A stretch of DNA of 64,000 nt from Bacteroides fragilis (GCA_945889005.1 CAMDBI010000011.1:1379-65378), one strand, 5' to 3'. Numbered from the stretch's first letter, positions 6,207 to 27,713 are shown. Translations and numbers: made by a program. Notes: generated from the sequence alone by a model not told the origin.

Positions 6207-6213
6207 TTGTTCT

Positions 6214-7017: not shown

Positions 7018-7093
7018 TAAATAAAAAATCAATAGCCATTTTAAATTAAATTGTACTACTACATTATTCGTGGAGAATGTATATTATAACTTT

Positions 7094-7267: not shown

Positions 7268-7292
7268 TTATACAGAGTCTTTGTTAGAAGAC

Positions 7293-7338: not shown

Positions 7339-7376
7339 AGCCTCAAAGCTTTAAGAAAGCAACATTGCTAATTGTA

Positions 7377-8057
7377 TTAGTCGCGCGAAGCACCTAAATA
7401 CACTAATATATAATAAATTAAAGTTGACAATGAAGCTATTGCAGCAACCACATAAGTATAACCTGCCCAATTTAATGCATCTTTAGCATTTTCGGCAAGC
7501 ATCGAAGTTACAATTCCTTTGTTGTTGATCCATGCAATTGCACGGCGACTGGCATCGATTTCGACTGGTAACGTAATAAATGCAAAAATGGTAGTAAAAG
7601 CAAACATAACAATTCCAAACAAAAGCAATGGGGGAAAAATAGTAACAAGCAAAATGCCTGCTAAAAGCACCCATTGTACCCAGTTAGAAGCAAAACTTAC
7701 AACAGGAACCAGTTTCGAACGCATCGTAAGCCACGCATAAGCCTGCGCATGTTGAATAGCATGCCCACACTCGTGAGCCGAAACGGCAGCAGCCGATAAA
7801 TGACGACCATAATATACTTCCGTACTTAAATTAACTGTTTTTGTCAAAGGATTGTAATGGTCGGTAAGTTCTCCTTCGACTGAGATTACACGCACATCGT
7901 AAATATTGTTGTCGCGAAGCATGGCTTCTGCAACATCTTTTCCACTCATCCCATTGTTTGTAGGAATTTCAGCATATTTCTTAAACTTTCTTTTAAGTTT
8001 AAAACCTATATACCAACTTAAAAGCATAAAAAAGATCATAATAACTATCGCAATCAT
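7377..8057 (-). CDS. membrane zinc metallopeptidase (YugP-like)
   Basis: 226 aa with HExxH (HECGHAIQH) and several TM helices. The layout matches the 'putative neutral zinc metallopeptidase' family. Confidence 0.8.
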   Translation of the reverse strand: MIAIVIMIFFMLLSWYIGFKLKRKFKKYAEIPTNNGMSGKDVAEAMLRDNNIYDVRVISVEGELTDHYNPLTKTVNLSTEVYYGRHLSAAAVSAHECGHAIQHAQAYAWLTMRSKLVPVVSFASNWVQWVLLAGILLVTIFPPLLLFGIVMFAFTTIFAFITLPVEIDASRRAIAWINNKGIVTSMLAENAKDALNWAGYTYVVAAIASLSTLIYYILVYLGASRD

Positions 8058-8190
8058 AACTTTAATTTTTAAATTTTTTACAAAGATAATATCAATTTTT
8101 AAGCCAATAGTTAAAATACTAATTGAATGGACAATTTGACACCTTTTTAATTTTTTTTAATTAATTTCGCTCACACAAAATAGATACTTA

Positions 8191-8604
8191 ATGTTAAAGA
8201 TTGCAGTAGATTTCGATGGAACCATTGTAGAGCATGCTTACCCGGCAATAGGTAAAGAAAAACTATTTGCATTCCAAACACTTAAAGAGCTGCAAAAACG
8301 AAGTTACAAACTCATATTATGGACATACCGTGCCGGCAAGGAACTTGACGAAGCTGTTGAGTATTGCCGTCAAAATGGCATAGTATTTTATGCCGTAAAT
8401 AAAAGCTATCCCGAAGAAATCTTTGACGATAATACAAGCCGAAAAATTGATGCAGAAATTTATATCGACGATCGTAATTTAGGAGGTTTCCCTGGCTGGA
8501 GCGAGGTTTGGATTATGCTAAACCCCGATAATATCGACTATTCAAAAGTACCTAAACCTATTTCGGCTAAAAAAAGCTGGTTTAAACGTTTCTTGGGTAT
8601 TTAA
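8191..8604 (+). CDS. small HAD-like hydrolase-fold protein
   Basis: 137 aa. The N-terminal DFDGTIV (DxDxT) nucleophile motif is present and there is no cap domain. Confidence 0.5.
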   Translation: MLKIAVDFDGTIVEHAYPAIGKEKLFAFQTLKELQKRSYKLILWTYRAGKELDEAVEYCRQNGIVFYAVNKSYPEEIFDDNTSRKIDAEIYIDDRNLGGFPGWSEVWIMLNPDNIDYSKVPKPISAKKSWFKRFLGI

Positions 8605-8615
8605 GACAGATAAAC

Positions 8616-9647
8616 TTAATTGTCTTTAATAGTATAATCCGATAACAATTTTTTGAAATTGCCAATCTGTCGGCGTGTTCCCAGAACAAAAAGCTTATCG
8701 TGGGTATCTATTGAGGTTTCGGTCGGCGGGTTGACTACAATTATTTTACCGGCTTGTTTAATACCCAAAACCATCACTCCTGTATCGTTGTGCTTATCGA
8801 TATCGCGCAAAGTGCGCCCGTTGAAATAGTCGGCTATTTCGTTACAACGAATTTCGTCAATAATAACATTATTAGACCCTGCCGACATAACATATTCTAC
8901 AAACTGCACTACATCTGGCTGGGCTATGAGTCGCGCCATACGACGCCCACCAATCATGTCGGGCATTATTACACTATTGGCTCCTGCCCTTTTAAGTTTT
9001 AAATCGGCTCCATCTTCAGATGCTCGACTAACTATATTGATATTTGGATTGAGCTGTCGGGCTGTAAGTACAAGGAAAACATTGTGCGAATCGTCGGGAA
9101 GTGTTGCAATTAATGCTTTTGCATGTTGCAATCCGGCTTCTTCCAATATTTCATCTTGCGTTGCATCGCCATCAATAAATAAAATATTACCTTCATTTTC
9201 GAGAAAATCAATTACATCTGGATCTTTGTCGACAACTATAAAAGGCACATTATGTTCCTTCAATTCGAGCGAAGCTTGCCTACCATTGTTTCCATAGCCA
9301 CAGATAATGACATGGTTTTTTAAATTATCGATCTGTTTTCTTATCATCCTTTTTCTGAGGTATTTGACAAAAGTGCCATCGGCCAACAAACTTGTTAACG
9401 ATGTAATTGCATAAGCAAATGTACCAAAACTAAATAAAATAAGTACAATTGTAAACCATTTACCTAAATCAGACAAAGGTGCTGGTTCTCCAAAACCCAC
9501 AGTTGAAATTGTAATAATAGTCATAAAAAAGGCATTGGTAAACTTGTAGCCCTCGATAAATTTATACCCTATTGAACCTATTACAATAAGTGCTATAAGT
9601 AAAATTAACGAAATATATACCGACCGCAGTCTATCTTTTCCTCTCAT
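8616..9647 (-). CDS. potassium channel with RCK/TrkA domains
   Basis: 343 aa. Two TM helices flank a pore with selectivity filter TVGFGE. A Rossmann motif GYGNNG (TrkA-N) and a TrkA-C-like end follow. Confidence 0.85.
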   Translation of the reverse strand: MRGKDRLRSVYISLILLIALIVIGSIGYKFIEGYKFTNAFFMTIITISTVGFGEPAPLSDLGKWFTIVLILFSFGTFAYAITSLTSLLADGTFVKYLRKRMIRKQIDNLKNHVIICGYGNNGRQASLELKEHNVPFIVVDKDPDVIDFLENEGNILFIDGDATQDEILEEAGLQHAKALIATLPDDSHNVFLVLTARQLNPNINIVSRASEDGADLKLKRAGANSVIMPDMIGGRRMARLIAQPDVVQFVEYVMSAGSNNVIIDEIRCNEIADYFNGRTLRDIDKHNDTGVMVLGIKQAGKIIVVNPPTETSIDTHDKLFVLGTRRQIGNFKKLLSDYTIKDN

Positions 9648-13765: not shown

Positions 13766-14212
13766 TTACAATATCCTCACCAACGACATAATAGCCACCG
13801 AAGTAATCTTTTTGCCGTCTATTGCCTGAATAAAAACATGGTATGGTCCTGTTTTTTGGCATTGGAAGTTGAAATATTGAACTGATTGCCCTGTTGCGGG
13901 TATGTATGTGCTAGCATAGAGTTTGCTCATATCGTAAAGTTGTACCATTGCTTTGCCATCTACTCCTTCGGCATCACAAATAGTAAAACGGTATTCGGTT
14001 CCTTTTTGGAGAATAATGGTATTTTTTTGCTGAGGTGCTTTGCCATCGGGGCCGGCTGCATCTAACTCAACATAAAAGTCCTTAAGGTAAGTTACTTCTT
14101 CTCCAGCTACCTTATTACAAAGGTCAACGAGTTTTTGAGTTGTTTGAGCGCTCGTTTCGAAAAAAGAGGTACAAACAAATACCAAAATAGCTGTAAAAAC
14201 TATTTTCTTCAT
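13766..14212 (-). CDS. secreted hypothetical protein (last gene of the signalling/ABC block)
   Basis: 148 aa with a signal peptide (..FETSAQT..). It is co-directional with upstream genes after an 88-nt gap. Confidence 0.5.
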   Translation of the reverse strand: MKKIVFTAILVFVCTSFFETSAQTTQKLVDLCNKVAGEEVTYLKDFYVELDAAGPDGKAPQQKNTIILQKGTEYRFTICDAEGVDGKAMVQLYDMSKLYASTYIPATGQSVQYFNFQCQKTGPYHVFIQAIDGKKITSVAIMSLVRIL

Positions 14213-14300
14213 ATCGTGGTTAAATTTTAATAATCAAGCTAATAGAGCTTATATTTTTGACCAAATTATTTTATAAAGATATACTTTTTTTTAAACAACG

Positions 14301-15230
14301 TTAAATATTAATCAACCTTGTTCGTACTTCTTCAATAGTTGTTCTTATTTGTTGCAATTGTTCAGGTGTAGAACTTACAATACTCTTGTCCATTTGTTTT
14401 ACTGTAAGAACTCCATTTTCAATAACCGATTCGGGTTCGCCAACCTCGTAGGTTATTTTTATGCCGCTAAATTTATCGCTAATTATTTTAAATTCATCGC
14501 GATATTTTTTAAAATCGGCATCACGTGAATAATTGTCGAGTATAATCATCAAATACGACAATATTTCTTTTTGACCACCAATACGTTCGTCCAATTTTGC
14601 ATTGCTTTTCTCTTTTGCTACCTGTGTAGCCAAATACATACCTTCGAGCCAGACCCCGGCAATAATCAATGCACTGAGACTCCCACGTTTGTTTTCGCGA
14701 AGGTAATTGTCCATTTGATTGAAACTATGTACCGAAATATACATCATCGAATCCATATTGGTATTGTTCGATGCAAGGCGTTTTAAGGTAGTGAAATCGA
14801 AAAACTGACCAATGTTAAGGTTGTCGGCCAATGTTTTGATGGTCGACAGATAATCGACCACAGAACCCGTTTTGCCATACATATTGAGGTAACCCAAATC
14901 GGCACCAAATATACCCAAAGCAAGTGCTTGTTGCATGCTAGTATTGTATTTCGACAAGTAACTGGTTGTTGCCAAGTATTTTTTAGAATAAGGAACTCCC
15001 ATAGACTTAATGAGAGCTGCCATTTCTACAGGCGACGAAACGTTTTCGACAATTCCTTTCATGGTTTCGTCAGAAACCTCGGGTGTTCCGGCAAATTTTA
15101 CCGAATCGGGTACCTCCAGGGTATTGTTTCCTCCACCTGAGCCACACGACGAAAATATTACAATAGCGAATATTAGGTATAAAATCTTGCTAATCATATT
15201 AATAAGTTTATTGGTTTTAGTTTTTTGCAT
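14301..15230 (-). CDS. hypothetical lipoprotein, translationally coupled to the ABC transporter
   Basis: 309 aa with lipobox IFSSCGSGG. Its start overlaps the ABC gene 3' end by 14 nt. Confidence 0.55.
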   Translation of the reverse strand: MQKTKTNKLINMISKILYLIFAIVIFSSCGSGGGNNTLEVPDSVKFAGTPEVSDETMKGIVENVSSPVEMAALIKSMGVPYSKKYLATTSYLSKYNTSMQQALALGIFGADLGYLNMYGKTGSVVDYLSTIKTLADNLNIGQFFDFTTLKRLASNNTNMDSMMYISVHSFNQMDNYLRENKRGSLSALIIAGVWLEGMYLATQVAKEKSNAKLDERIGGQKEILSYLMIILDNYSRDADFKKYRDEFKIISDKFSGIKITYEVGEPESVIENGVLTVKQMDKSIVSSTPEQLQQIRTTIEEVRTRLINI

Positions 15231-18200
15231 TTTTCCTACGCATTTTTATTTTCTCAGGTAAATTCAATAGTTTTTTCAACAATTCGAAATATAATGTAAA
15301 ATATAGTATCGTTGTATAAAGCCACAGTATACACATATTAAAGAAGAACGTATCGTAGAATTTTCCTAAAAAATATTTTCGTGGTGCATAGAAATGCGAC
15401 CTTACACTCAACGGTCCAGTAATACGAGGATCCATAAAAATGGGGTCGACTTGCTGAACCAGATAATGATCGTATTCCAAAATTTTATTTTTTTCAAATA
15501 CTTTTTTAACTTGATCTTCCAATTGCTCGTTGGTGTATTTATCTTTCATTTTCTGATAGTAATCGCCTTTATTAGCTACTAACCAGTTGATTATATTGGT
15601 TTTTTCGAGATTAGCACTGTTGAAATCGTCTTGGTAATATTGCAAAAGATTTTCGAGATATTCGTGCAAATAAGGCAAAATGGAAGCTTCAAACTTTTCA
15701 GGGGTCAAGTAGTCAAAATATTTGAACTGAACAGATGGAACCAAGCTTTGTTGAAGTGCTATCTCGTTTTTAAGTAACAACAAGTCATTGAGCGATTTTT
15801 GCAATTTTCCTTTATTATTGAATTCGTTGTCGACATTATCGGCACGTTTCATAAGCTCAGGAATATAATGCACTTGCTTAAAATCAGCATTACTAATGCG
15901 TTTTTCAAGGGGGTAGAATTGCTTTTGAAACTCGTTGTCCTTATACTGTGTTACCATTAATGCTTCGTACGACCATTTGGTCACCATTATTTCGGCAATT
16001 AAAGGTACTTTGTCGACACTTCCAACGGTACGATTGAGCTTATCGAAACTAAACATGGCACCGCTCAGTACCATCATCGGGATCATGAGCAGCGGTATTA
16101 CAATATATATGGTAACAGCCGAGTTGAACGATGCCGATACATTTAAACCCAGCATATTGGCAAATGCAGCAGTCGAAAACAATGCAAACCAGTATACAAA
16201 AGTAAGATCGTGTATTCCCAAAATGGCATTTCCTATCAGTACAAATGTTCCACTCTGAATAGCAGCCAACACAAATAGTATAAAGACTTTTGAGATCAGG
16301 TAACTTGTGCGGCTCAGGTTCAGAAATGCTTCTCGTTTTAGTATTTTGCGGTCTCTAAAAATCTCCTCGGCACTTACTGTAAGTCCTAAAAATAGAACAA
16401 CAATAAGACTCATAAATATATAAATAGAAATATTTTCGTTTTCCCTGAAAATATAAACATCGGAATTGGGGTCGGCTATATACCTTATTATATATGAAAG
16501 TATAAAACCTAATAATGGTGCTTCGAGCAAATTGAGTGCAATATATTGTTTATTGCTTATTTTCGATAAGAAGTCGCGAATGGTATAGATTTTTAATTGT
16601 TGTAACTTACTAGGAATATTAAGCGTTTTTGGAGGAGCCTCTTTAATTTCCTCAATATTTTCGACTTTAAAGCTTTGCTTGTAGTGCTCTTCCCATTTGG
16701 GGGGCGCCACCTTACGGGTATTGGTGTAATTGCCATACTCATCAACTACTCGGGCTTCTACAATATTAAAAATTAGTTCTGGATTAACATTTCCACATGC
16801 CGGACACTCGCCTACTTCACTATTGATTTGGCGATCCATACGTTTGAAATACATAACAGCCTCAACCGGGTTGCCATAATACACCTGATAACCACCTGTG
16901 TCGAGTATTACCATTTTGTCGAACATCTTGTATATTTCGGACGATGGTTGGTGTATGACCACAAAAATCAATTTTCCTTTAAGAGCCAATTCGCGAAGAA
17001 GATCCATCACATTTTCCGAATCTCGCGACGAAAGACCCGATGTAGGCTCGTCGACAAACAATATGGATGGCTCTCTGATAAGTTCAAGTGCAATATTTAA
17101 ACGTTTGCGTTGCCCGCCCGAAATAAATTTGTTTAAAGGTGAACCCACCTTCAAATCTTTACGGTCAAACAAACCTAAATTTACAAGTGTTTTGTGTACA
17201 AGTTCTGTAAGTTCTTCTTCGGTTTTGTCTCTAAAACAAAGCTTAGCGCTATAATATAAATTCTCAAAAACCGTAAGCTCTTCAATGAGCAAATCGTCTT
17301 GCGGAATAAGCCCAATAACACCTTCCAAATCACGTTTTTGGGTGTGAAGGTTTTTGTTATTAATAAGCACTTCGCCTTTCGATGGGCACTCGTTTCCGCA
17401 TAATACATTGAGCAAGGTGGTTTTACCCGCTCCCGACGCACCCATAATTCCGACCAGCTTACCGTGCTGTTCGGCAATGTTTACATCGATTAAACCTATA
17501 TTGCCATTTGGAAAGCGAAATTCGAGATTATTAACAACAAAAGATATTTTACTAGAATGTATATCGGCCAAAAAATGTGCAGCTACATCGCTATAATATA
17601 CCGGCTTACCCTTAGGTAGCTTAACGGTACTTCCGGGCGAAAATAAGTATATTCGGCGGTTGTGAACAGCCAATCCGTTGAGAAACAAGGTCTCTGAACC
17701 AGTATATTTGAGAAAATAAAGATCGGCCGAAGGAATTCGAAGTATAAAAATATTGGTATCGAGCTTTTCGGTATGAATCTGCTTACAAGCTTGACATTCA
17801 ATCTCGTGATCGCCTATAATTAATACATTGTTGTCGTCGAGTTTTGTTGGATCTGAATTGATTACAAACGAGTCAACACTTTTAAATTCGTCGCTTGAAA
17901 TATTAAATACTTCTGCAACGGTATTGATTATTGCCATACGCTGATCAGAAAACTTCTGATCGGCACTAACTATTTCGAATAATCTTACAAGAACAATTAC
18001 TTTTTGATTCTGTGTAAGGGTTTTATTTATTTTTTTACATATACCGAGTATACGAACCGAATCTTTTACCGAAGTGAGTTTCTTTTTTTTCTCACCATCA
18101 CCGTTTTCCTCAACGGTTATACCAGCAAATTCTTCAAATTGTTTATAGTATATTTCGGTTTGTTCATCTGACAATTGTAAAGCCAAAAAATTCCTAACAT

Positions 18201-18288
18201 ACTCTTTCTCACTATCTTCTACACCTTCATCTTGTTTTACGATAAGGGCAAATAGTTGCATTAGCGCTTTGAGAATCTCTTCACTCAT
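15217..18288 (-). CDS. ABC transporter, fused ATPase-permease (ABC-2/ABCG type) with large N- and C-terminal extensions
   Basis: 1023 aa with Walker A GASGAGKTT, signature SGGQRKR and Walker B ILFVDEPTSGL, followed by a multi-TM ABC-2-type permease. An extra N-terminal region of roughly 270 aa and a long C-terminal extension ending in another TM helix are present. Confidence 0.85.
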   Translation of the reverse strand: MSEEILKALMQLFALIVKQDEGVEDSEKEYVRNFLALQLSDEQTEIYYKQFEEFAGITVEENGDGEKKKKLTSVKDSVRILGICKKINKTLTQNQKVIVLVRLFEIVSADQKFSDQRMAIINTVAEVFNISSDEFKSVDSFVINSDPTKLDDNNVLIIGDHEIECQACKQIHTEKLDTNIFILRIPSADLYFLKYTGSETLFLNGLAVHNRRIYLFSPGSTVKLPKGKPVYYSDVAAHFLADIHSSKISFVVNNLEFRFPNGNIGLIDVNIAEQHGKLVGIMGASGAGKTTLLNVLCGNECPSKGEVLINNKNLHTQKRDLEGVIGLIPQDDLLIEELTVFENLYYSAKLCFRDKTEEELTELVHKTLVNLGLFDRKDLKVGSPLNKFISGGQRKRLNIALELIREPSILFVDEPTSGLSSRDSENVMDLLRELALKGKLIFVVIHQPSSEIYKMFDKMVILDTGGYQVYYGNPVEAVMYFKRMDRQINSEVGECPACGNVNPELIFNIVEARVVDEYGNYTNTRKVAPPKWEEHYKQSFKVENIEEIKEAPPKTLNIPSKLQQLKIYTIRDFLSKISNKQYIALNLLEAPLLGFILSYIIRYIADPNSDVYIFRENENISIYIFMSLIVVLFLGLTVSAEEIFRDRKILKREAFLNLSRTSYLISKVFILFVLAAIQSGTFVLIGNAILGIHDLTFVYWFALFSTAAFANMLGLNVSASFNSAVTIYIVIPLLMIPMMVLSGAMFSFDKLNRTVGSVDKVPLIAEIMVTKWSYEALMVTQYKDNEFQKQFYPLEKRISNADFKQVHYIPELMKRADNVDNEFNNKGKLQKSLNDLLLLKNEIALQQSLVPSVQFKYFDYLTPEKFEASILPYLHEYLENLLQYYQDDFNSANLEKTNIINWLVANKGDYYQKMKDKYTNEQLEDQVKKVFEKNKILEYDHYLVQQVDPIFMDPRITGPLSVRSHFYAPRKYFLGKFYDTFFFNMCILWLYTTILYFTLYFELLKKLLNLPEKIKMRRKNAKN

Positions 18289-18330
18289 TTTTTGGGGGAA
18301 ATTTTATTTTAGATAAACAAGTTTTGAAAA

Positions 18331-18708
18331 TTATGCATAAGCAATTTTTTCAAATGGTACATCTACAATATCTGCATATTCATTACCTGCTTCTTCCATA
18401 TCTTCGTCGTCTTCGGGGTAATGCCATTTAATAAGCACCTTTCCGCTTTTCTTGTGAAGATCCTCAAGTTTCATGAGTATATCAAGAATCATTTTTGAAG
18501 AGGCTGTGTTGAAATATACAAGTTTGAAATTGAAAACAGTATCAGCATTGGGTGCAGCAATGTAATCGCCCAACCATGTAAGAATAGGCCCATAAAAACT
18601 GCTGACATCCTCTGGCAGTGAACGACCCGATATTTCAAACTGGTTTGCAGCCTTATCGAGTATTACTTCAGGAGTATCTTCAGTGCCCTTAATTTTAATC
18701 GCGTCCAT
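18331..18708 (-). CDS. DUF1987 / SiaC-like partner-switch phosphoprotein
   Basis: 125 aa with the hallmark ..FNFKLVYFNTASSKMILDIL.. and an acidic C-terminus. It resembles SiaC of the Pseudomonas SiaABCD system. Confidence 0.75.
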   Translation of the reverse strand: MDAIKIKGTEDTPEVILDKAANQFEISGRSLPEDVSSFYGPILTWLGDYIAAPNADTVFNFKLVYFNTASSKMILDILMKLEDLHKKSGKVLIKWHYPEDDEDMEEAGNEYADIVDVPFEKIAYA

Positions 18709-18722
18709 AGCTTATTGAGTTA

Positions 18723-19298
18723 TCAATTATTTAATCTTGAAATTGTTGAAGTTAATAAAAAAAATGAAATTTTATCGTCGATTGGTAAAAAATGAAATTC
18801 GAGTTTGTTTTTGGTTTTACGCTTAATATCGATAAACCCGAGACCTGCGCCACCTTTTTCGGACAAGCGCCCCTCTTTAATTTGTTTTTTGTACAACTCG
18901 TCAAGTTCTTCTTTTTCCAATGAGTTGATGCGATCGAGCATTGTTTTAAGTTCTTCAACTCGCGAATTGTCGAGTGCGTTACCAGTTGTAACTGAGTATT
19001 CGGCTTCGCCTTTGCTAACCATAAATATTCCTCTGCCAGCATATTGAAAATCGTTGATGGCAAAATCGTCGGCGTGTTTGCTAATATTTTGAAGACATTC
19101 GACCATTACATGAAAAACCTTACGCTGTACATTTCCCGACTCTTCTTCCTTAGCCATATTCGACTCGGCTAGAGATGTAAATGCCTTTGTTAATTGATGT
19201 GTAATTTCACCTTCATACACTAATGTAATCTCGTGAGTTTTCATGGTTTGATAAAAATCATACACAAACTCTAAAAATCCTTTGGTGTCTTTTTTCAT
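18723..19298 (-). CDS. SiaB-like protein kinase (anti-sigma-kinase/GHKL-like)
   Basis: 191 aa with ..KGGAGLGFIDIKRKT.. near the C-terminus, as in SiaB-family kinases. It lies directly upstream of the DUF1987 gene. Confidence 0.7.
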   Translation of the reverse strand: MKKDTKGFLEFVYDFYQTMKTHEITLVYEGEITHQLTKAFTSLAESNMAKEEESGNVQRKVFHVMVECLQNISKHADDFAINDFQYAGRGIFMVSKGEAEYSVTTGNALDNSRVEELKTMLDRINSLEKEELDELYKKQIKEGRLSEKGGAGLGFIDIKRKTKNKLEFHFLPIDDKISFFLLTSTISRLNN

Positions 19299-19388
19299 TA
19301 TTTATTATTTTATTTTCAGATCTATGATATCCATTTTGATTCAACATCAAATTTAATGTTTTTTACATAAATCCAAGCATGTGAATAT

Positions 19389-22013
19389 TTAAAATTCTAT
19401 ACCAATTAATAAAACGTCGTCAATTTGTTTCAGGTCGCCTTTCCATTCGTCAAAATCCTGGGCTATAAATTCGTAAAATTGTGTCATCGAAGTGTTTTGG
19501 TTTTCGAGTATAATATTACGAATTCTACCGGGCGAATATTTTTTCTTTTCTGCTCCTCCCAATTGATCGGGCAAACCATCGGAAAAGAAATAAATTTTAT
19601 CGCCATTTAATACATTAATCACATAATTTGTAAAAGGCTGTTCGGGTTTATTGCCTAAAGGTATACCTCCAATTGCCTTACGGTCGCCTTTGTATTCACT
19701 CAATTCGCCTTTACGAATCATGAAAAGAGGTCTGTGCGCTCCAGCAAATTGAACTTCGCGTTTGCGCAAATTTATTTTACAAAGTGCTATATCCATACCA
19801 TCGCGCCCACTAGCATCTTCGCGATCTTGCTTAAGAGTCGATCGAACACCCGAATGCAAATGGTCGATTATTTCCGATGCTGTCATCTCTTTTTCGTTCT
19901 CGACAATACTGTTGAGTAAAAAATAGCCTATAAACGAAAGCATTGCGCCAGGTACTCCGTGTCCGGTACAGTCGACAGCTGCAATATACAAGTTGTCGCC
20001 TTTGCGGAAAAACCAAGGGAAGTCGCCGCTTACAACATCGCGAGGCTTGTAAAATATAAATGATTTTGGGAAAAAATCTCGAATTAGCTTATTGTCGGGC
20101 AAAATCGACGATTGTATTCTTTGGGCATAGTTAATACTGTCTTCGATCTTTTTGTTTTTTTCCTGAATTTCCATTTCTATTCGTTTGGCCTCGGTAATGT
20201 CGTGTCCAACAAATAAAACAGTTTCAAGTTCATTTTCGTTAAACTCGGGAATAGAATCGAAACTTATGATACGAATACTTGTTTTTTCGCCCATTCTGAT
20301 AGGTACAGATATTTCCTGATTTTGTTTCTCAGGCTTCTGTCTCATTGCTTTGAGCGATGCTTTAAAAAAAACTTTCAATACTTCTTCTATAGGCAAATCA
20401 TCGATGGTTTTATTAATCACATCGCGCGATTCAACACCAATATAGTCTTCAACAATTGGGTTGGCATAAAAGAAATGCCCCTGCAAACTCATACGCAAAA
20501 TAACATCGAGCGAATTTTCGGATAGTGATTGCATTTTGCTTTTCATGCGCTCTTCTTTCTCTGCTCTTTTACGCTCGGTAATGTCCTGAGAGTTAAGAAG
20601 TATTCCTTTTATTGCAGGCTCAGCAAGTAAGTTTCGCCCAGTTGTTTCCAAAAAAATCTTTTGCCCATCTTTTTTCATGTATGTGTACAGAATTGTGATG
20701 GGGGTACTCGGGTCTTGAGTCAAGTACTTAAACATGTTTCTTATTTCCTGCTCACCTTTGCGTGTAAGGCGGTCGAAGAATTTGCCATGAGTCATTTCCT
20801 CAGGCGAATAACCCAGAATTTTTTTTACAGAAGGACTTTGATATGTAAGATTTAGAAATTCGTCGTAAATAGTAATAATTTCAGATGAATTCTCGAGCAA
20901 AGAATTAATGCGGTTTTGAGCATTTTCGACTTCAAGAATTTGACCTTCGAGTCGTTCGTTCGATTTCTGAAGCTCTTCTTGTGTAGCACGCATTTCTTCG
21001 GCACTCTGGCGCAATTGCTCTTCGTTTTCCTGAAGTTCGAGGGTCATTTGTTGCGATTCCTGCAGCAATTTCTCTGTTTTCTCGTTTATTTGAAGGTTAA
21101 AAATGGTACGTGCTATAATCTCGCCCAACTCCTTTAGAAAAGTAATAGTAAGGTCGGGTATTTGATTGCGCAATGAAGCAAACTCGAGTATTCCATGCAA
21201 TTTCTCGTCGCTTATTAATGGTACAATCAAAATACTTTTTGGTCTTTTTTCGCCCAAAATACCCGATGTGATGGTAACATAATCGTCGGGAATTTCTGTA
21301 CGGTAGATTATGTCCATCTCGTAGGCGCACTCACCGATTAAACCTTCTCCAATACTGAATTTCTGATTGATAAATTTTTTTCTATTATAGGCAAAGGTTG
21401 CAATATTGACAATGTACTTTTCTTTGTCGTCGTAAATATAAAAAGCACCCTGAATAGCATCGATGTATTTTATGAGTTTTTCAATTACCTCGGCTGCTAA
21501 TTCGTTTAACTTAGTGTGCATTCGAAGTATATTCGATACTTGGTCTTTCCCTTCGGCTATCCAACTTTGCTCGGCTTCCTTCTTGTGTGTAGTAAGCAGG
21601 TTGTTGCGCATCACAAGCAGCGACTTACCCAAAAGATCGTCGTCGCTGGTAAGCTCTATATTGCTATTGTAATTTCCCTCGCCTATCTCTTTTGCAAAAA
21701 TGGCTGTTATATCCATTCTTTCACGCAATTGAGAAATTTCTTGTTTAAACAACGATTGCTCGTATAAACTCTTATTAAGAAAAAAGAAAACTGCAAATGC
21801 TATTGCAAATGGCAATATATCTATAGTATATAATGCCGGATTGGACGAATGTATAAATAAAAACCCTACGAACGAAAACCTTATGTCTTCTATTATAAAA
21901 TAAATAATCCAAAAAATAACAGGAATAAAAAACGACAGAAGAAAACTGTTTATAACGTTTAACCTTATTTTTTCGGGTGAAAGATCTTGTATGTTGGCTC
22001 TATTCTTAAACAT
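19389..22013 (-). CDS. membrane sensor PP2C/SpoIIE phosphatase (TM-HAMP-like-GAF-coiled coil-PAS-PAS-PP2C), SiaA-like
   Basis: 874 aa. PP2C motifs are ..VSGDFPWF.., ..VDCTGHGVPGAMLS.., ..SDGLPDQ.. and ..DDVLLIGIEF. A GAF domain and two PAS-like regions lie upstream, and the N-terminus is multi-TM. Confidence 0.85.
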   Translation of the reverse strand: MFKNRANIQDLSPEKIRLNVINSFLLSFFIPVIFWIIYFIIEDIRFSFVGFLFIHSSNPALYTIDILPFAIAFAVFFFLNKSLYEQSLFKQEISQLRERMDITAIFAKEIGEGNYNSNIELTSDDDLLGKSLLVMRNNLLTTHKKEAEQSWIAEGKDQVSNILRMHTKLNELAAEVIEKLIKYIDAIQGAFYIYDDKEKYIVNIATFAYNRKKFINQKFSIGEGLIGECAYEMDIIYRTEIPDDYVTITSGILGEKRPKSILIVPLISDEKLHGILEFASLRNQIPDLTITFLKELGEIIARTIFNLQINEKTEKLLQESQQMTLELQENEEQLRQSAEEMRATQEELQKSNERLEGQILEVENAQNRINSLLENSSEIITIYDEFLNLTYQSPSVKKILGYSPEEMTHGKFFDRLTRKGEQEIRNMFKYLTQDPSTPITILYTYMKKDGQKIFLETTGRNLLAEPAIKGILLNSQDITERKRAEKEERMKSKMQSLSENSLDVILRMSLQGHFFYANPIVEDYIGVESRDVINKTIDDLPIEEVLKVFFKASLKAMRQKPEKQNQEISVPIRMGEKTSIRIISFDSIPEFNENELETVLFVGHDITEAKRIEMEIQEKNKKIEDSINYAQRIQSSILPDNKLIRDFFPKSFIFYKPRDVVSGDFPWFFRKGDNLYIAAVDCTGHGVPGAMLSFIGYFLLNSIVENEKEMTASEIIDHLHSGVRSTLKQDREDASGRDGMDIALCKINLRKREVQFAGAHRPLFMIRKGELSEYKGDRKAIGGIPLGNKPEQPFTNYVINVLNGDKIYFFSDGLPDQLGGAEKKKYSPGRIRNIILENQNTSMTQFYEFIAQDFDEWKGDLKQIDDVLLIGIEF

Positions 22014-22019
22014 GCAATG

Positions 22020-22799
22020 TTATTGGAGTTTGTTTTTAATAATCACCTTTGCTAACTTATCAGACATTTGTCGAAACACCTCTTCAGTAAGTGAATCGAT
22101 ATCTTTAAATGTCGACATCTCTATTACGGCAATAGTTATATTGTTGTCGACTAATGGAATATAGATAATATAAGAAGGTTTGGCATTACCTAAACCCGAT
22201 GATACTAAAAAGTAATCTTCAGGAATTTCGGTAATTTTTACTATTTTCTTATCTTTAGCTACTTGACCTGGTATTGTTTCGCCCTCGATAAAAAGTGGTG
22301 GTGTTTGGTTCGAATAAAATGCATATAATGCAACAGGTTTAAACTCTGAAGCGTCTTTTGACCTTATATACACGACACCTTGTACAATTTCGAGTATTTT
22401 TGAGCAATATTGGAATATATGTTCTCCAAATTTCTCTGCCGACTCATATTTCTCTTTTTCTGGAATAAGAGACTCAATTAAAGCCGGAATATCAATGTTA
22501 TTTTCGTGACTTTTTGCCACTTCTTTTTCTTTTTGTTTTTCTATATGTCTTATCTTTAATTTTGTAATTAATTCATCTACTACTATTTCCTTTTCAGTTA
22601 ATTTTGTATATGTTATGAAATATGCAATATAAATTAGAACAGACATTGCCAAAAATAGGAATAATATAATAAAGAATAAACTTGAAATATGAATTTGTTT
22701 AGTTAAATTGATTGAATAACCTAAAATGAAAAAAAAGGCTAACAGTATAGCTGCCAATGCAATAAATATAAAAACTTTATGAATTTTTAATTTCCTCAT
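22020..22799 (-). CDS. membrane-anchored GAF-domain protein
   Basis: 259 aa. Two TM helices are followed by a GAF-like domain paralogous to those in the 874- and 884-aa proteins. Confidence 0.6.
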   Translation of the reverse strand: MRKLKIHKVFIFIALAAILLAFFFILGYSINLTKQIHISSLFFIILFLFLAMSVLIYIAYFITYTKLTEKEIVVDELITKLKIRHIEKQKEKEVAKSHENNIDIPALIESLIPEKEKYESAEKFGEHIFQYCSKILEIVQGVVYIRSKDASEFKPVALYAFYSNQTPPLFIEGETIPGQVAKDKKIVKITEIPEDYFLVSSGLGNAKPSYIIYIPLVDNNITIAVIEMSTFKDIDSLTEEVFRQMSDKLAKVIIKNKLQ

Positions 22800-22801
22800 T
22801 T

Positions 22802-23392
22802 TTACTTTAGCTTTGATATAAAGTTAATAATTTTTTCGGCAGATAACACCTGATTTACACTAGTAATATTCAATGTAGATTCGGTCATCATAGCAACCTC
22901 GCAATCTTTAGGATCCTGAACAATGGTATATCCGCCCATATCGGCAATTTTTTTGAACCCCATTGCTCCATCTTTATTTGCTCCCGAAAGTATTATTCCA
23001 ATAAGTTTGTTTCGATAAGCTTGAGCAGCTGTATAAAAACTCAAATCGATAGATGGTCTCGAGTGATTTACCGGCTCTTCGGTTGACAATGCAATTCTGT
23101 TGCCAATTTCGATATACATGTGGTAATTTGCCGGTGCTAAGTAAGCTTTGCCTGGTTTAATAACATCTTTATCGCAGGGTTCTATAATGGGTATTTTCGA
23201 TTTAAGCAACAATGCCTCAACAAAACCTGTGCGAATATGTTTCAAACGGTGAAGGCACAAAAATATGGGCATATCAATACCTTTCGGAATCACATTCAGA
23301 ATATTTAAAACAATCTGAAAGCTTCCGGCCGATCCTCCAATAATGAGTGCCTTATAGTTGCTAAAGTCGTTTGAATACATTTTCTGCTTCAT
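22802..23392 (-). CDS. CheB-type methylesterase, catalytic domain only (no receiver)
   Basis: 196 aa with ..IIGGSAGS.., ..CLHRL.. and ..GANKDGA.., corresponding to the Ser/His/Asp regions of CheB. There is no N-terminal REC domain. Confidence 0.8.
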   Translation of the reverse strand: MKQKMYSNDFSNYKALIIGGSAGSFQIVLNILNVIPKGIDMPIFLCLHRLKHIRTGFVEALLLKSKIPIIEPCDKDVIKPGKAYLAPANYHMYIEIGNRIALSTEEPVNHSRPSIDLSFYTAAQAYRNKLIGIILSGANKDGAMGFKKIADMGGYTIVQDPKDCEVAMMTESTLNITSVNQVLSAEKIINFISKLK

Positions 23393-24194
23393 TAACTAAT
23401 CTGAAACTTTTTGCTATCATCAAACCTAATTGTTCTTTATTACCTATTGCTAAAAATCCACCCTGAACGATCGACTCACTTAACTTCTTCATTACCTTGT
23501 CGTGCAAGTTCTGATTGAAGTATAGCATTTTGTTGCGATACAATATCAACTTCATATCTTGTAGTTGATGATCAAAGTTAATATTTTGTTTCAGAAATTT
23601 AACATTTTTAATTAAGCTTATATCTCTGTAATAATTTTCTTTATGAATTGAAATATATTTGCCAAAATCTCCTTCTCCTTTATATCTTATATAGTTGTCG
23701 CGACTGGTTTCAAATTTATGTGCCTGAAAAAAACCTGTTTTTATTTGTTCAATAATAGTTTCGATTGGTGAAGATGCATAAACTTCTGCACGATCGTCAA
23801 AATTTGACTCCTTTAATACAATCATTAATGAAAACAATTCGTCGCCCGAGATAGTGTCGGGTAACCATATTTTAATATTTAAATTGTTGTTTTTAAATAT
23901 TGACAGAAAAAATTCGTCGCGCAAAAAAGCCCAAAATGTTGGATCGCGAAACATCTCGGTCGACTCTACATAAATCTCCATTAAAATTGTTTCGAAAAAG
24001 CCACTCTTATCTTTAATCCTGGCTATTAAACCTTCGGCATTCTTAAGATTGTGTTTTTGAATAATGTGCTCAAATCTTCGTTTTAGCGATGTTAAAGCAT
24101 AGTCGGAGAAATCGAGACCATGCAAGTCATGAATGGTCTTGATTATCTGACGATACTCAACAATACCTAATTCTATTTCGAATAAAAAAAGCAT
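23361..24194 (-). CDS. CheR-like protein with degenerate SAM-binding motifs
   Basis: 277 aa. CheR N-domain and TEMFRDP are conserved. The AGCSTGEE loop reads LPDTISGDE, and CRNVxIYF reads YRNKMLYF. Confidence 0.75.
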   Translation of the reverse strand: MLFLFEIELGIVEYRQIIKTIHDLHGLDFSDYALTSLKRRFEHIIQKHNLKNAEGLIARIKDKSGFFETILMEIYVESTEMFRDPTFWAFLRDEFFLSIFKNNNLNIKIWLPDTISGDELFSLMIVLKESNFDDRAEVYASSPIETIIEQIKTGFFQAHKFETSRDNYIRYKGEGDFGKYISIHKENYYRDISLIKNVKFLKQNINFDHQLQDMKLILYRNKMLYFNQNLHDKVMKKLSESIVQGGFLAIGNKEQLGLMIAKSFRLVNEAENVFKRL

Positions 24195-26849
24195 TTATTC
24201 TGTTTTACTTTTTAAGCGTTCAATTTCTTTGTTGGCTTCTTCTAACAATTGATATTTAAGCTTTCTTTCTGTGATGTTGAAGCCCATCATTGTAACTTTC
24301 ACAATTTTATCTGCTTGGTCTTTAATTGGGGTAAATGAAACAACAAGCCACACCTCTTCGCCAGTTGGACGTGTTCGTTTAATGGATCCTGTATATGTTT
24401 TTTCTTTAAAAACCTCGATCCATATTCGCTCCATTTGCTCTTTTTCGTCGTCTTTTAAAGAAAAAGTTAATTCTTTTCCAACAAGTTCTTCCTTTTTATA
24501 GCCAATTTCCTCTAAATAGTATTCATTAACAAATAATACTTTGCCCTCGGCCGAATAATCGACTCTTAGAAACGAACCATTGATTACTTCATTTATGTGA
24601 TCTACTTGAGCCAATGCATTTTCGACCTCTTTCGATTTCTGCAAAACTTTAGCCTCATTTTGTTTTATTTCCGTAATATTGGTTGCAATACTCAATACTT
24701 TATATGGCATAGCTTTTCGATCGAGAACCGGAGTTAATGACTGGTGCAACCAAATATCGGAGTTGTCTGTAGATTTAAACCGGTCAATTATTGAACCCGG
24801 TCGGCCCGAAGTAAGATCTCCCCAAACCCTATTGAGTTCATCGCGACGTTGAATGGTCGATATTTCCTGGTGTGTTCGTCCGACAATGTCTTCGGCTTCA
24901 ATACCCAAAAGATTTAGAAGTTTATGATTGATCTCAGTTATTTTGCCCGACATATCGAAAACCATAGTTAAGGCCGATTGGTTAACAGCCCCAAGTGTTC
25001 CGGTAAGCTCTGCTTCGCGACGTGCAAAGTCTTCTTGGGTTGTTCGCAATTCTTCCATATTTTGGCGCATTTCTTCTTCCTGCTCGGCCATTTCCTGTGC
25101 TTGTCGCTGCGATTGTTCTAATAGTACCGATGTTCTAGCATTGATTCGAACAGTTGTAATGGTAGAGGCAATGCTTTGAGTAATTTTTTCTACAAAATCG
25201 ACTTCGTGTGGTTTAAACTCGTTGAATGAAGCCAATTCAACTACTCCCAGCACTTCGTTTTCGAGTTTTAGGGGTACAAGTAGAATACTATTTGGCTTCG
25301 AATCGCCCAAACCGGAGGTTACAAAAACATAATTGTCTGGAATATCGGTCAATAGCATCTTTTCCGATTCAATGGCACAGGTTCCAACCAAACCTTCGCC
25401 TAACATCACTTTCGACGATATATATTTTTTCTTTTCGTATGCAAAAGCAGAGTATAACTCTAGATATGATTCTTTGCTATCGGCATCAGTATTGAGGTAA
25501 TATAGTCCACCGATGGTTGCATTAATGTATTTTACGAGGTTTCTGATTATTTCTTCAGACAATAGCTTCATATTGCTGTTGTTTTGGCGTAGCAAATCGC
25601 TAAACAATGCAAGACCTTCGTTTGCCCAAATACGTTTCTTTTCCTCGTCTTTGTATTTTTGATCTTCGAGATCGGCTTTTTGCAAGCTCTTATCCATCTC
25701 GATAAGCGCATTGCCCAAAATATCGTTGTCGCTAAGTGGTTCGTATTTAATATTGTGATGTCCCTGACCTATCTGCATTGCAAATTCGGCTTTCGAACGT
25801 AACCCATGAACAAACTTATTGAGCAAATGACCCATTTCAGCTATTTCGTCGTTACCCTTCATTTCGAGATGATTTGGCAGTTTTCCTTTGACCAATTCGT
25901 CGACAAAATTTTTAATATTATTGATGGGTTTGTATATATACTTGTAAAATTGCCAGTAGAATAGCACTACAGAAGCTATAAATAATAGGAAATATACAAA
26001 AATTACAAAATAAGCTACGATTGACTTATTTCTAATTTGTTTTTCGACCAAATTGCTAATTTGGTTTGCTTCAAACATCCAGTTGTCTTGTATTGCATTA
26101 ATCTTTCCTTTTAAACCATCGAAGTTGGTAAGCCCTAACGATCGATCGAGGTCTTTTATTTCGGAAGTAAGTTGTTTAAGCTTTTGTATTTTATTTACTA
26201 TCAACAGCTTATTCGATATGTTAGACATTGTAGCAGAGGCAATAAGATCGTCGATCTGAACCTGCAATTGCGTAAAAAATATGGGGTCTTTTGTCTCTAA
26301 GTACCTTGCATACAGTTCGTCAACACCAGCCAATTGTTTCAATAGTACTGAAGAAATTGGTTTAAATAAATTTTTGAGATCATTAATAAGTATTCTAGAA
26401 TGCCCTATTTTCCCGTATTTAATATTTCCTCGTTCTTGCATAACTATAAAAAGCTGTTCGTACGAAGCATTAATTTGCTCAAGCAGTATTATAGTATTGG
26501 CAAAAGAATTGAAAAGAGCCGAATCTCGATCGATGTAAAAGTTGTGAGACAAGTAAAGTACATTGTCGGTTTGTTGCTCAATGAGCTGTTTTATATTTCG
26601 TGTATTGTTGTTTTTTCCTGACCTGAAAAAACGTGAGTCGTCGTCAAGTTGGGTTAAAAAAACAAACTCGGCAGTGTCAATTTTCTGATTGAAAAACACA
26701 AATTCCTCAGTAAGTTTAGAGATATTGTGCATCTCGTTTAGATTTTTCACCTGATTGAGCGATGAAACAAACATTAATACCGACAAAAGAGTAACAATAC
26801 TGATAATTATTGTTAATCTTGTTTTTATATTCATACTAATCAAACCCAT
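24195..26849 (-). CDS. MCP-shaped sensor: TM - ~250-aa helical ectodomain - TM - HAMP - GAF - E/Q coiled coil - PAS - PAS, no output domain
   Basis: 884 aa with two TM helices (N-terminus and ..IVAYFVIFVYFLLFIASVVLFYW..) and a HAMP-like segment. The GAF domain, coiled coil and two PAS-like regions are paralogous to those of the 874-aa protein. No kinase, MA or PP2C domain is present. Confidence 0.8.
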   Translation of the reverse strand: MGLISMNIKTRLTIIISIVTLLSVLMFVSSLNQVKNLNEMHNISKLTEEFVFFNQKIDTAEFVFLTQLDDDSRFFRSGKNNNTRNIKQLIEQQTDNVLYLSHNFYIDRDSALFNSFANTIILLEQINASYEQLFIVMQERGNIKYGKIGHSRILINDLKNLFKPISSVLLKQLAGVDELYARYLETKDPIFFTQLQVQIDDLIASATMSNISNKLLIVNKIQKLKQLTSEIKDLDRSLGLTNFDGLKGKINAIQDNWMFEANQISNLVEKQIRNKSIVAYFVIFVYFLLFIASVVLFYWQFYKYIYKPINNIKNFVDELVKGKLPNHLEMKGNDEIAEMGHLLNKFVHGLRSKAEFAMQIGQGHHNIKYEPLSDNDILGNALIEMDKSLQKADLEDQKYKDEEKKRIWANEGLALFSDLLRQNNSNMKLLSEEIIRNLVKYINATIGGLYYLNTDADSKESYLELYSAFAYEKKKYISSKVMLGEGLVGTCAIESEKMLLTDIPDNYVFVTSGLGDSKPNSILLVPLKLENEVLGVVELASFNEFKPHEVDFVEKITQSIASTITTVRINARTSVLLEQSQRQAQEMAEQEEEMRQNMEELRTTQEDFARREAELTGTLGAVNQSALTMVFDMSGKITEINHKLLNLLGIEAEDIVGRTHQEISTIQRRDELNRVWGDLTSGRPGSIIDRFKSTDNSDIWLHQSLTPVLDRKAMPYKVLSIATNITEIKQNEAKVLQKSKEVENALAQVDHINEVINGSFLRVDYSAEGKVLFVNEYYLEEIGYKKEELVGKELTFSLKDDEKEQMERIWIEVFKEKTYTGSIKRTRPTGEEVWLVVSFTPIKDQADKIVKVTMMGFNITERKLKYQLLEEANKEIERLKSKTE

Positions 26850-26873
26850 GTTATGTAAGGTTTTTATTGTTTA

Positions 26874-27713
26874 TTATCGTTTAACATACACCTGATCTTT
26901 CTTGTCGAAATTTGAGGTGTGATAGCCTAGAATCGTTTCGTGCATTCCTAAAACCAAAATACCGTTGTCGAATAAATTATGGTAAAATAAATCGAAAACT
27001 CTATTTTGCAAGTTATAATTAAAATATATAATTACATTACGACATAAAATTAAATCAAATTTTACATGAAATACATTTTGATCTCTTACCAAATCGTGTT
27101 TTTTAAAAGTTGGCTTTTCGGTAAGAAATGGTTTAATTTTTAATATATCGTTTACCTTATCAATAATAAAATATTTCTCGTAAGGTACATCATTAAATTT
27201 GTCGAAATTTAATGGATTTTCTTTAATAACTTTATCAAAATTGTCTAAATAACCGATATTGAACCTATATTTATAAACACCTTTTCGAGCAACATCAAGC
27301 ACATCGGCATTAATATCGGAACCAAACACCTTAGATTTTTCGAGCATATTCAGTTCGTTGAGCAAGATAAGCATAGAATAAACTTCTTGCCCGGTAGAGC
27401 AACCTGCATGCCATATATTAATGCTTTCATAATCTTTGAACAATGGCAAAACATGGTATCTAATGTGCTGCCATATAGCAGGATCGCGAAACAATTCGGT
27501 GGTATTTACGGTTACGTCTTTAACGATTTTCTCGGCAAAATTTTGATTTTTTTTAATTTCACAAATAAGTCCTACAATATCAAGATTGTTGTCTAACAAA
27601 ACTTTTGCCAAACGACGCTTGAGCGACTTCATAGAATAATCGGTAAAATCGTATCCTACCGATTGCATTATAGCTCCTATAAATAATTGAATATCCTGAT
27701 CTTCGTTTGTCAT
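26874..27713 (-). CDS. CheR-type protein-glutamate O-methyltransferase
   Basis: 279 aa with TELFRDP, NIWHAGCSTGQEVYS and LILCRNVIIYF all intact. Confidence 0.85.
   Translation of the reverse strand: MTNEDQDIQLFIGAIMQSVGYDFTDYSMKSLKRRLAKVLLDNNLDIVGLICEIKKNQNFAEKIVKDVTVNTTELFRDPAIWQHIRYHVLPLFKDYESINIWHAGCSTGQEVYSMLILLNELNMLEKSKVFGSDINADVLDVARKGVYKYRFNIGYLDNFDKVIKENPLNFDKFNDVPYEKYFIIDKVNDILKIKPFLTEKPTFKKHDLVRDQNVFHVKFDLILCRNVIIYFNYNLQNRVFDLFYHNLFDNGILVLGMHETILGYHTSNFDKKDQVYVKR

Follow-up and report, generated by a model that had tools for sequence, protein, structure and literature searches.

Several described systems each share part of their makeup with a gene cluster that we analyzed on the minus strand of a 64,000-nucleotide stretch of contig CAMDBI010000011.1 (positions 1379 to 65378; assembly GCA_945889005.1, labeled Bacteroides fragilis), hereafter the window. 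(i) In Bacillus cereus, the "S-helix" of RsbK is methylated by the CheR-type enzyme RsbM (PMC4574943). (ii) The MAC1/MAC2 class of Wuichet and Zhulin (2010) is described, in a later preprint (bioRxiv 10.1101/2022.05.07.491037), as kinase bearing and experimentally uncharacterized and as occurring in organisms that possibly lack other chemotaxis systems. (iii) In Pseudomonas aeruginosa, SiaC is phosphorylated on T68 (PMC7647112, PMC8457831); its unphosphorylated form binds the helical stalk of SiaD, the product of the neighboring gene, and the same study puts forward that a DUF1987 protein acts as a regulator of the protein encoded next to it (PMC8457831). (iv) In Mycobacterium tuberculosis, the FHA-bearing ATP-binding cassette (ABC) exporter Rv1747 is controlled by Ser/Thr phosphorylation through PknF (PMC3138270). 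The cluster in the window places genes for CheR- and CheB-type enzymes next to those for a sensor-fused PP2C phosphatase, SiaB and SiaC family proteins, and an ABC exporter. The evidence that its eleven genes constitute one conserved signaling-and-envelope module is strong, and we read the whole, at about even odds (a probability of roughly 0.5), as a methylation-tuned phosphatase switch in which SiaC acts on the exporter.

The cluster occupies positions 13766 to 27713 as eleven closely packed open reading frames (ORFs) with gaps of -32 to 90 nt (Table 1). From CheR1 to the lipoprotein gene, the successive gaps measure 24, 0, -32, 2, 6, 90, 14, 42, and -14 nt, and the gene for a 148-aa exported protein starts 88 nt beyond the latter. 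An earlier note on this DNA had listed ten minus-strand genes with gaps of 0 to 90 nt or overlaps. ORF analysis and Pfam and NCBIfam searches of the cluster proteins recovered all ten where it placed them, with the same domains and spacing; the 148-aa gene, which has no entry there, is an eleventh member. Its statement that genes for CheA, CheW, methyl-accepting chemotaxis protein (MCP) signaling, and a cyclase are missing holds for both the cluster and the window: a domain search of every ORF of at least 120 aa in the window recovered no CheA, CheW, CheY/receiver, MCPsignal, or GGDEF, and the Pfam and NCBIfam searches detected no HisKA/HATPase_c kinase, receiver, STAS protein, or sigma factor gene in the cluster. 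A promoter and terminator scan gave signals at shuffled-background levels and was uninformative.

To determine how far these genes stay together, we scanned one genome per species with the phosphatase as the query, which retrieved 36 Bacteroidota loci at 46 to 80% identity. Counting only loci whose contig reaches the gene in question, CheR1, CheR2, and CheB are each present in 30/30, the transmembrane (TM)-GAF protein in 32/32, SiaB in 34/34, SiaC in 32/33, the ABC protein in 30/30, the lipoprotein in 28/28, and the 148-aa gene in 27/27, and wherever the locus is long enough, the gene order does not change. Only the 884-aa sensor departs from this pattern, being optional: a version of ~890 aa occurs in 14 loci and one of ~725 aa in 7, and the gene is absent from 8, in which CheR1 consequently abuts CheR2. 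SiaB, SiaC, CheB, the phosphatase, and the ABC protein are the best conserved, and CheR2, the TM-GAF protein, and the sensor are the least conserved. The genes thus form one conserved module, with the 884-aa sensor as an optional part. A search seeded with the ABC protein returned only orthologs of 66 to 100% identity and hence does not test the linkage beyond the clade. The source contig is from a metagenome assembly, and its relatives are metagenome-assembled genomes (MAGs) of Bacteroidales and other Bacteroidota; the carriers of the cluster are uncultured Bacteroidales. The same gene order was also seen in one MAG labeled Chlorobiota rather than Bacteroidota (L018), which binning, taxonomy, or gene transfer may explain.

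The link between the methylation enzymes and the switch is suggested by a Glu-rich coiled coil found in two of the membrane proteins. The 884-aa sensor consists of a TM helix (residues 12 to 30), an extracytoplasmic region of ~245 aa, a second TM helix (residues 277 to 295), and HAMP and GAF domains, followed by the Glu-rich coil and two PAS domains, the last of which forms the C terminus. Pfam detects no output domain, MCPsignal, or HisKA/HATPase_c in this protein, and the outer domain shows no Pfam match and no detectable CHASE3. The phosphatase has three TM helices, a GAF domain, the same type of coil, two PAS domains, and a SiaA-type PP2C domain. It and the TM-GAF protein (TM helices at residues 9 to 27 and 41 to 59) have almost no outer loops. 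In both the phosphatase (ELQENEEQLRQSAEEMRATQEEL) and the sensor (AEQEEEMRQNMEELRTTQEDF), the coil comes directly after the GAF domain, and the two can be aligned position by position. They have in common a pattern of 19 residues, E-x-EE-x-L/M-RQN-x-EE-x-R-A/T-T-QEE, with Glu or Gln pairs seven residues apart (heptad spacing) and a central EExxA/T-T site, which we take to fit the classical MCP methylation consensus Glu-Glu-X-X-Ala-Ser/Thr. The phosphatase consensus, ENEEqLRQnAEEMRATqEEL, is near-invariant in 32/33 sequences, with one divergent; the sensor version, QEEEMRQN[ML]EEL.[AT]TQE, is invariant in 20/20 sensors and is the best conserved block of a protein whose overall identity among relatives is only 31 to 44%. 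Scanning the window in all six reading frames, we encountered the pattern just these two times, and a 47-aa motif consensus used as a query for homologs retrieved only three fragments.

The relatives of this region point in the same direction. The closest plasmid homologs of the CheB are receiver-less versions from Sphingopyxis and Brucella operons, which encode a large hybrid kinase, CheR, CheB, and a kinase/regulator. These plasmid kinases are alphaproteobacterial, and their architecture is that of B. cereus RsbK and of the MAC class. Their GAF-plus-helix region aligns with the window sensor (E = 5e-21) and phosphatase (E = 2e-19), and the kinase alignment spans LLEETQRQ..ELQ.QSEELRVSNEELEEQ, running through the Glu-rich helix. 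Given this homology of the GAF-plus-coil module to RsbK-type kinases in CheR-CheB operons, the module is a kinase-less MAC relative, here joined to a SiaA-type PP2C phosphatase. Hence, the Glu-rich coil is a well-motivated candidate methyl acceptor for CheR1 and CheB. Like the RsbK-RsbM-RsbY system, the window has a CheR-type methyltransferase gene beside that for a membrane sensor with HAMP, GAF, and a signaling helix; its GAF-plus-helix is homologous to RsbK-like kinases (those aligned being from Sphingopyxis and Brucella); and in the RsbK pathway, too, a PP2C phosphatase is the route to a partner switch of kinase and antagonist. The two differ in that the window has no histidine kinase or receiver and its phosphatase is fused to the sensor, so that the His-Asp relay is skipped; in that the cluster includes a CheB esterase, whereas RsbM is an orphan writer; and in that the switch is SiaB/SiaC rather than RsbW/RsbV, with an ABC exporter as the neighbor and no sigma factor gene. 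As presented in that preprint, the MAC systems likewise combine CheR/CheB with no CheA, CheW, or MCP and have an acceptor coiled coil within the sensor protein itself, with stand-alone CheR and CheB genes beside the acceptor gene in MAC2; by the same source, however, MAC proteins bear kinase domains, whereas the acceptors in the window are PP2C ended and output-less, respectively.

Of the three enzymes whose genes flank both candidate acceptors, CheR1 is a canonical CheR-type glutamate methyltransferase and probably the active writer: it aligns to a CheR of known structure (PDB code 5ftw; E = 5e-30), and 27 orthologs share its S-adenosylmethionine (SAM)-binding motifs, AGCSTGQE, [ST]D[IL]N, and CRNVIIYF. 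In CheR2, motif I reads LPDTISGDE, and the acidic residue that follows beta-2 is missing from all 28 orthologs. With the SAM motifs gone and the N-terminal helical domain kept, it looks like a noncatalytic paralog; the description of this protein as CheR-like in the earlier note therefore stands as a domain match, but it is degenerate and is probably not a methyltransferase. Since distant loci have a single canonical CheR, the duplication is specific to the window clade. The CheB consists of the catalytic domain, with no receiver domain detected by Pfam or structure alignment (orthologs, 153 to 198 aa), and its Ser, His, and Asp triad aligns to that of PDB entry 1chd and is invariant in 29 orthologs. 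These catalytic domains, the Glu-pair coiled-coil motif, and the TM-outer domain-TM-HAMP layout of the sensor are shared with the classical chemosensory pathway, from which the window departs in having no MCP domain, CheA, CheW, CheY, or CheB receiver and in an output of Ser/Thr dephosphorylation.

We then searched representatives of clusters formed at 50% identity and read eleven distant neighborhoods, which were checked by tblastn and motif scans. These revealed a large GAF-coil-PAS-PAS-PP2C family in which the Glu-rich segment is intact, degenerate, or deleted (Table 1). As regards the gene-order co-occurrence that the earlier note proposed to check, the order CheR-CheB-GAF-PP2C-SiaB-SiaC-ABC is kept at 39 to 50% PP2C identity in L043, L048, L049, L050, and L055, and the PP2C-SiaB-SiaC-ABC part is also found in L042 and L044. 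The GAF-only gene between CheB and PP2C likewise recurs in distant loci. The core of the system comprises the phosphatase, SiaB, and SiaC; CheR/CheB, the exporter, and the pair of exported proteins often accompany this core but can be separated from it.

The placement of the motif in these loci is complementary. In L043 and L049, the motif is lost from the phosphatase, and a separate HAMP-GAF sensor beside CheR carries AQEEEMRQNMEE[LM].ATQEEM; in L043 in particular, it has been deleted from the phosphatase and the separate sensor shows AQEEEMRQNMEELQATQEEM. Where there is no separate sensor (L050 and the 8 window-clade loci), the motif is kept on the phosphatase. It thus tends to sit on whichever sensor adjoins CheR, a placement that points to defined glutamates. 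In L048 (positions 1991 to 3390), CheR is devoid of all three SAM-site motifs, CheB has been cut down to 157 aa, and the two helix motifs have degenerated as well; judging from these sequences, the methylation part appears to be decaying jointly, with the switch and the exporter intact. In L055 (positions 168 to 9411), the CheR and CheB genes of the module are immediately preceded by a canonical set comprising MCP, CheW, CheR, a HATPase protein, CheD, and REC-CheB, so that two methylation sets stand side by side in one genome. A further set of chemotaxis genes was seen in L047 (positions 1 to 8379), where an MCP, CheW, MCP, CheA, receiver, and STAS cluster on the strand opposite the phosphatase adjoins GAF-PP2C-SiaB-SiaC. 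Copies of the motif also occur on plasmids of Chondrinema litorale, where L051 (6686 to 12655) and L052 (8680 to 12366) encode PAS-rich proteins of 1,989 and 1,228 aa, respectively, which repeat QEEE[LM][RK]QN[LM]EE[LM].ATQEEM two to three times, along with looser copies, and have no CheR/CheB gene nearby and no obvious C-terminal output domain.

The phosphatase, SiaB, and SiaC genes occur in the same order as in SiaABCD of P. aeruginosa, i.e., membrane PP2C, SiaB-family kinase, and SiaC-family protein (PMC7647112, PMC8457831). Residues 610 to 872 of the phosphatase match the NCBIfam SiaA model NF038263 with 170 bits versus a cutoff of 700, a similarity at the domain level only, and the PP2C metal motifs SGD, DCTGHG, SDG, and DD are visible in its sequence. 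SiaB passes the family model NF038262 (SiaB_fam_kinase; 170 bits, cutoff 85) and falls below the equivalog model NF038264 (76 bits versus 225). SiaC is similarly below its equivalog cutoff (83 bits versus 150) and aligns to the P. aeruginosa SiaC structures 6kko and 6k4f (E = 1e-16). In its YFNTASS motif, the N, the T, and the two S residues are invariant in 34 sequences. The phosphothreonine motif N-T-x-S is therefore conserved between the two systems, and in both the target is presumed to be an adjacent gene product. The window differs from SiaABCD in having no SiaD cyclase or GGDEF gene and in that the match to SiaA is confined to the phosphatase domain, the sensor part being of the TM-GAF-helix-PAS-PAS type and accompanied by CheR/CheB genes. 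The SiaB gene is duplicated in tandem in L042 (3805 to 4981) and L055 (12618 to 13764) and encodes a double-length protein of 392 aa in L049 (12572 to 13750).

The gene following that of SiaC encodes the exporter, in which ABC_tran (residues 268 to 417) and ABC2_membrane (residues 563 to 782) lie in one chain with a C-terminal extension; the match to TIGR00955 (244 bits) is below the cutoff. The ATPase is preceded by a cytoplasmic N-terminal module of 250 residues. An AlphaFold2 model of residues 1 to 260 (mean pLDDT, 84) shows TerB-like helices followed by a beta-sandwich. In Foldseek comparisons with the PDB, the top ~40 matches are all FHA domains and fall on the beta-sandwich, albeit weakly (E = 8e-3 to 0.4; target TM-score, 0.4 to 0.55), and PG1108 matches the helical part. 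One Asn-Gly pair of the FHA-like domain is nearly invariant (>90% of 35 sequences). As in Rv1747, regulatory domains precede the ATPase, the gene lies beside Ser/Thr signaling genes, and an FHA-type fold is predicted; the differences are that this prediction comes from a weak match of the fold alone, that a TerB-like domain is placed ahead of it, that the kinase is of the SiaB rather than the Hanks type, and that the presumed ligand is a separate switch protein rather than the exporter's own linker. Of the two exported proteins, the lipoprotein shows no Pfam or NCBIfam family, and a comparison of its AlphaFold2 model (pLDDT, 79.5) with the PDB yielded nothing meaningful (best E = 0.5); the 148-aa protein matches no Pfam family and has homologs in L043, L048, and L056.

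Gene content, domains, conservation of the catalytic residues and of the motif, homology to RsbK-type modules, and synteny are direct observations. These components can be assembled into the model that we favor at the even odds given above, in which we infer the methylation of the motif, the direction of the signal, and the target of SiaC. The membrane GAF sensors (the phosphatase, the TM-GAF protein, and, where present, the 884-aa sensor) would detect a membrane or cytoplasmic cue. CheR1 would methylate glutamates of the helix and the receiver-less CheB would take the methyl groups off, resetting the helix, and with it sensor output, with no CheA kinase involved; the noncatalytic CheR2 may still bind the helix. 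The helix would in turn control the fused SiaA-type PP2C domain, which would oppose SiaB in setting the phosphorylation of the SiaC threonine. One phospho-form of SiaC, by analogy with SiaC-SiaD the unphosphorylated one, would then bind a nearby target, most likely the N-terminal module (TerB and FHA-like) of the ABCG-type exporter encoded next to it; together with the lipoprotein and the small exported protein, this exporter may handle an envelope substrate. The proposal of the earlier note that the methylation enzymes feed the PP2C/SiaB/SiaC switch thus remains the best reading of the layout, to which the candidate acceptor coil adds support. Its further suggestion that transporter activity is the output holds up as regards position, the ABC gene being the next gene after SiaC in 30/30 loci, but it draws purely on synteny and two distant loci do without the gene; the exporter is by analogy the most likely target of SiaC, and this is the weakest step of the model. 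It is possible, if somewhat doubtful, that in non-motile Bacteroidales a CheA-free methylation memory sets the fused Ser/Thr phosphatase and, through SiaC, gates the ABC exporter posttranslationally. If true, this would be a complete sensory-adaptation route bypassing two-component phosphotransfer, second messengers, and transcription.

Several observations weigh against this model. On the exporter side, no FHA domain is recovered at the sequence level (Pfam at E values up to 10 and a profile search of PDB sequences), and the 35-sequence alignment, with residues mapped by eye, contains no conserved Gly-Arg or Ser-x-x-His. Given a match in fold only and phosphothreonine-binding residues that are not evident, we call the domain FHA-like and noncanonical. 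L047 and L056 retain SiaB-SiaC and the lipoprotein homolog but are devoid of the ABC gene, and SiaB-SiaC pairs occur in Bernardetia and Persicobacter with no adjoining TerB-type ABC or cyclase gene. Such cases would also fit a flow in the opposite direction, in which the exporter, lipoprotein, and small exported protein provide an envelope or flux input to the phosphatase and the TM-GAF protein and SiaC acts on an unlinked target. Bce-type ABC transporters serve as flux sensors for their kinases in this manner; the phosphatase and the TM-GAF protein, having almost no outer loops, may sense other proteins of the membrane; homologs of the lipoprotein and of the 148-aa protein remain beside SiaC in L047 and L056; and the pairs in Bernardetia and Persicobacter have no obvious neighboring target. 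However, the only studied SiaC system targets an adjacent gene product, the exporter has its own large cytoplasmic N-terminal module like regulated transporters such as Rv1747, and dedicated input domains are already available in the 884-aa, PilJ-type, and dCache-type sensors, so we consider a reversed flow unlikely. That the signaling and exporter operons are unrelated and merely lie side by side is the least probable reading of all: the siaC-ABC gap does reach ~220 nt in some loci and the ABC gene is missing in the two relatives just named, but it is adjacent in 30/30 loci and present in 7/9 distant loci that keep SiaB-SiaC, despite divergence (39 to 50%) and changing flanking genes.

On the side of the coil, the motif is found two to three times in the giant multi-PAS Chondrinema proteins, and also in the orphan phosphatase L046, with no CheR/CheB nearby, suggesting that it may be a structural signaling helix regardless of methylation, and it is only partly kept in the phosphatases of L055 and L056 despite intact CheR and CheB. 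If the coil were a signaling helix and nothing else, CheR1 and CheB would modify another substrate or sensors elsewhere. This we judge to be quite improbable in view of the heptad-spaced Glu pairs and the EExxA/T-T site, the homology to the helix of kinases in CheR-CheB operons (RsbK being methylated there), the complementary loss and gain of the motif between the phosphatase and the separate sensor, and the joint decay of motif and enzymes in L048. Alternatively, CheR1, CheR2, and CheB might serve a classical CheA/CheW/MCP pathway encoded elsewhere and be present here by chance, as the canonical che clusters of some relatives (L047 and L055) could be taken to indicate. The CheB, however, has no receiver domain for CheA to phosphorylate, the linkage to the phosphatase is fixed in 30/30 loci and seen in distant relatives, and L055 has a canonical CheR and REC-CheB besides the module's own pair, and for these reasons this explanation is very unlikely; no other che gene was found among the ORFs of at least 120 aa in the window either. 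The methylation-tuned switch therefore remains our preferred reading of the cluster.

All of the modules in the cluster are of known kinds, save the lipoprotein and the 148-aa protein, for which no known match emerged. Beyond the work on RsbK, we found no report in the literature searched of CheR/CheB combined with PP2C, GAF, and partner switching. The statement of the earlier note that it knew of no description of the wiring agrees with this search as regards the exact combination but overlooks the MAC class and the B. cereus RsbK-RsbM-RsbY system. What appears to be undescribed in the literature searched is the fusion of the acceptor module directly to a SiaA-type phosphatase; the paired CheB, along with a degenerate second CheR in the window clade; a SiaB/SiaC switch with no cyclase; and the recurrent linkage to a TerB/FHA-like ABC exporter and two exported proteins. 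A MAC-type acceptor module on a PP2C phosphatase would extend methylation-based adaptation to Ser/Thr partner switches. SiaC-family proteins are widespread, yet a cyclase is the sole target known for them; the exporter, with its TerB/FHA-like head, is a candidate for a second class of targets.

Table 1. Features of the cluster in the window and gene content of the distant loci
Feature	Position	Strand	Description
CheR1	26874-27713	-	Pfam CheR_N + CheR, 131 bits
Accessory sensor, 884 aa	24195-26849	-	Pfam HAMP, GAF, PAS, PAS
Candidate methyl-accepting motif, EQEEEMRQNMEELRTTQEDF	25026-25085	-	Sensor residues 589-608
CheR2	23361-24194	-	Pfam CheR_N + CheR, 71 bits
CheB, 196 aa	22802-23392	-	Pfam CheB_methylest, 152 bits; catalytic domain only
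TM-GAF protein, 259 aa	22020-22799	-	GAF_2, E 8e-6 (weak); two TM helices
Sensor phosphatase, 874 aa	19389-22013	-	Pfam GAF, PAS, PAS, SpoIIE
Candidate methyl-accepting motif, ENEEQLRQSAEEMRATQEEL	20970-21029	-	Phosphatase residues 329-348
SiaB-family Ser/Thr kinase	18723-19298	-	DUF6272, 142 bits
SiaC-family phospho-switch protein	18331-18708	-	Pfam SiaC, 141 bits
YFNTASS motif of SiaC	18496-18516	-	Thr aligns with T68 of P. aeruginosa SiaC
ABCG-like exporter half-transporter, 1023 aa	15217-18288	-	Pfam TerB, ABC_tran, ABC2_membrane
Exporter N-terminal cytoplasmic module	17620-18267	-	TerB-like residues 8-138; FHA-like beta-sandwich, residues 155-223
Lipoprotein, 309 aa	14301-15230	-	Signal peptide, FSSC lipobox; 14-nt overlap with ABC gene
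Exported Cys-containing protein, 148 aa	13766-14212	-	Signal peptide
L042			CheB, GAF, PP2C, two SiaB, SiaC, ABC, lipoprotein (cut by contig end); motif intact
L043			HAMP-GAF protein, CheR, CheB, 259-aa protein at TM-GAF position (no GAF match), PP2C, SiaB, SiaC, ABC, lipoprotein, small protein
L044			GAF, dCache-PP2C, SiaB, SiaC, ABC, two lipoproteins, small protein (truncated upstream); motif EEMEAT
L045, L046			Orphan phosphatases; motif degenerate in L045, intact in L046
L047			GAF, PP2C, SiaB, SiaC; CheR, CheB, and ABC absent; downstream, in inverted orientation, lipoprotein homolog and 146-aa gene; motif degenerate
L048			Full gene set; both helix motifs degenerate
L049			PilJ-HAMP-GAF-PAS protein, CheR, CheB, GAF, PP2C, SiaB, SiaC, ABC; motif off phosphatase, on separate sensor
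L050			CheR, CheB, GAF, PP2C, SiaB, SiaC, ABC, lipoprotein, small protein; separate sensor absent; AEEMRVTQEEL on phosphatase
L055			MCP, CheW, CheR, CheD, REC-CheB; then second CheR, receiver-less CheB, GAF, PP2C, two SiaB, SiaC, ABC; motif partly kept
L056			CheR, CheB, PP2C, SiaB, SiaC, lipoprotein, 148-aa homolog; no ABC; motif partly kept

Some other features of the window and the cluster were recorded in passing. A role as a defense system was considered for the cluster and rejected, as a PADLOC scan gave generic ABC-ATPase similarity only. Positions 48359 to 55887 form a low-GC island (GC, 0.285 to 0.306) with positive GC skew, encoding radical-SAM proteins (48359 to 49282, 49197 to 49973, and 53722 to 55887), a LytTR-only protein (50210 to 50587), an ABC_membrane/ABC_tran exporter (51224 to 53005), and a subtilase (53002 to 53709), and it resembles a gene cluster for a radical-SAM-modified peptide. 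On the minus strand, a HEPN gene (43955 to 44338) and a minimal nucleotidyltransferase gene (44335 to 44742) overlap by 4 nt, a layout usual for a HEPN/MNT toxin-antitoxin pair. A GldN-like fragment (2732 to 3262) and a protein bearing a CHU_C signal for type IX secretion (37306 to 38832) suggest the presence of gliding or type IX secretion system machinery.

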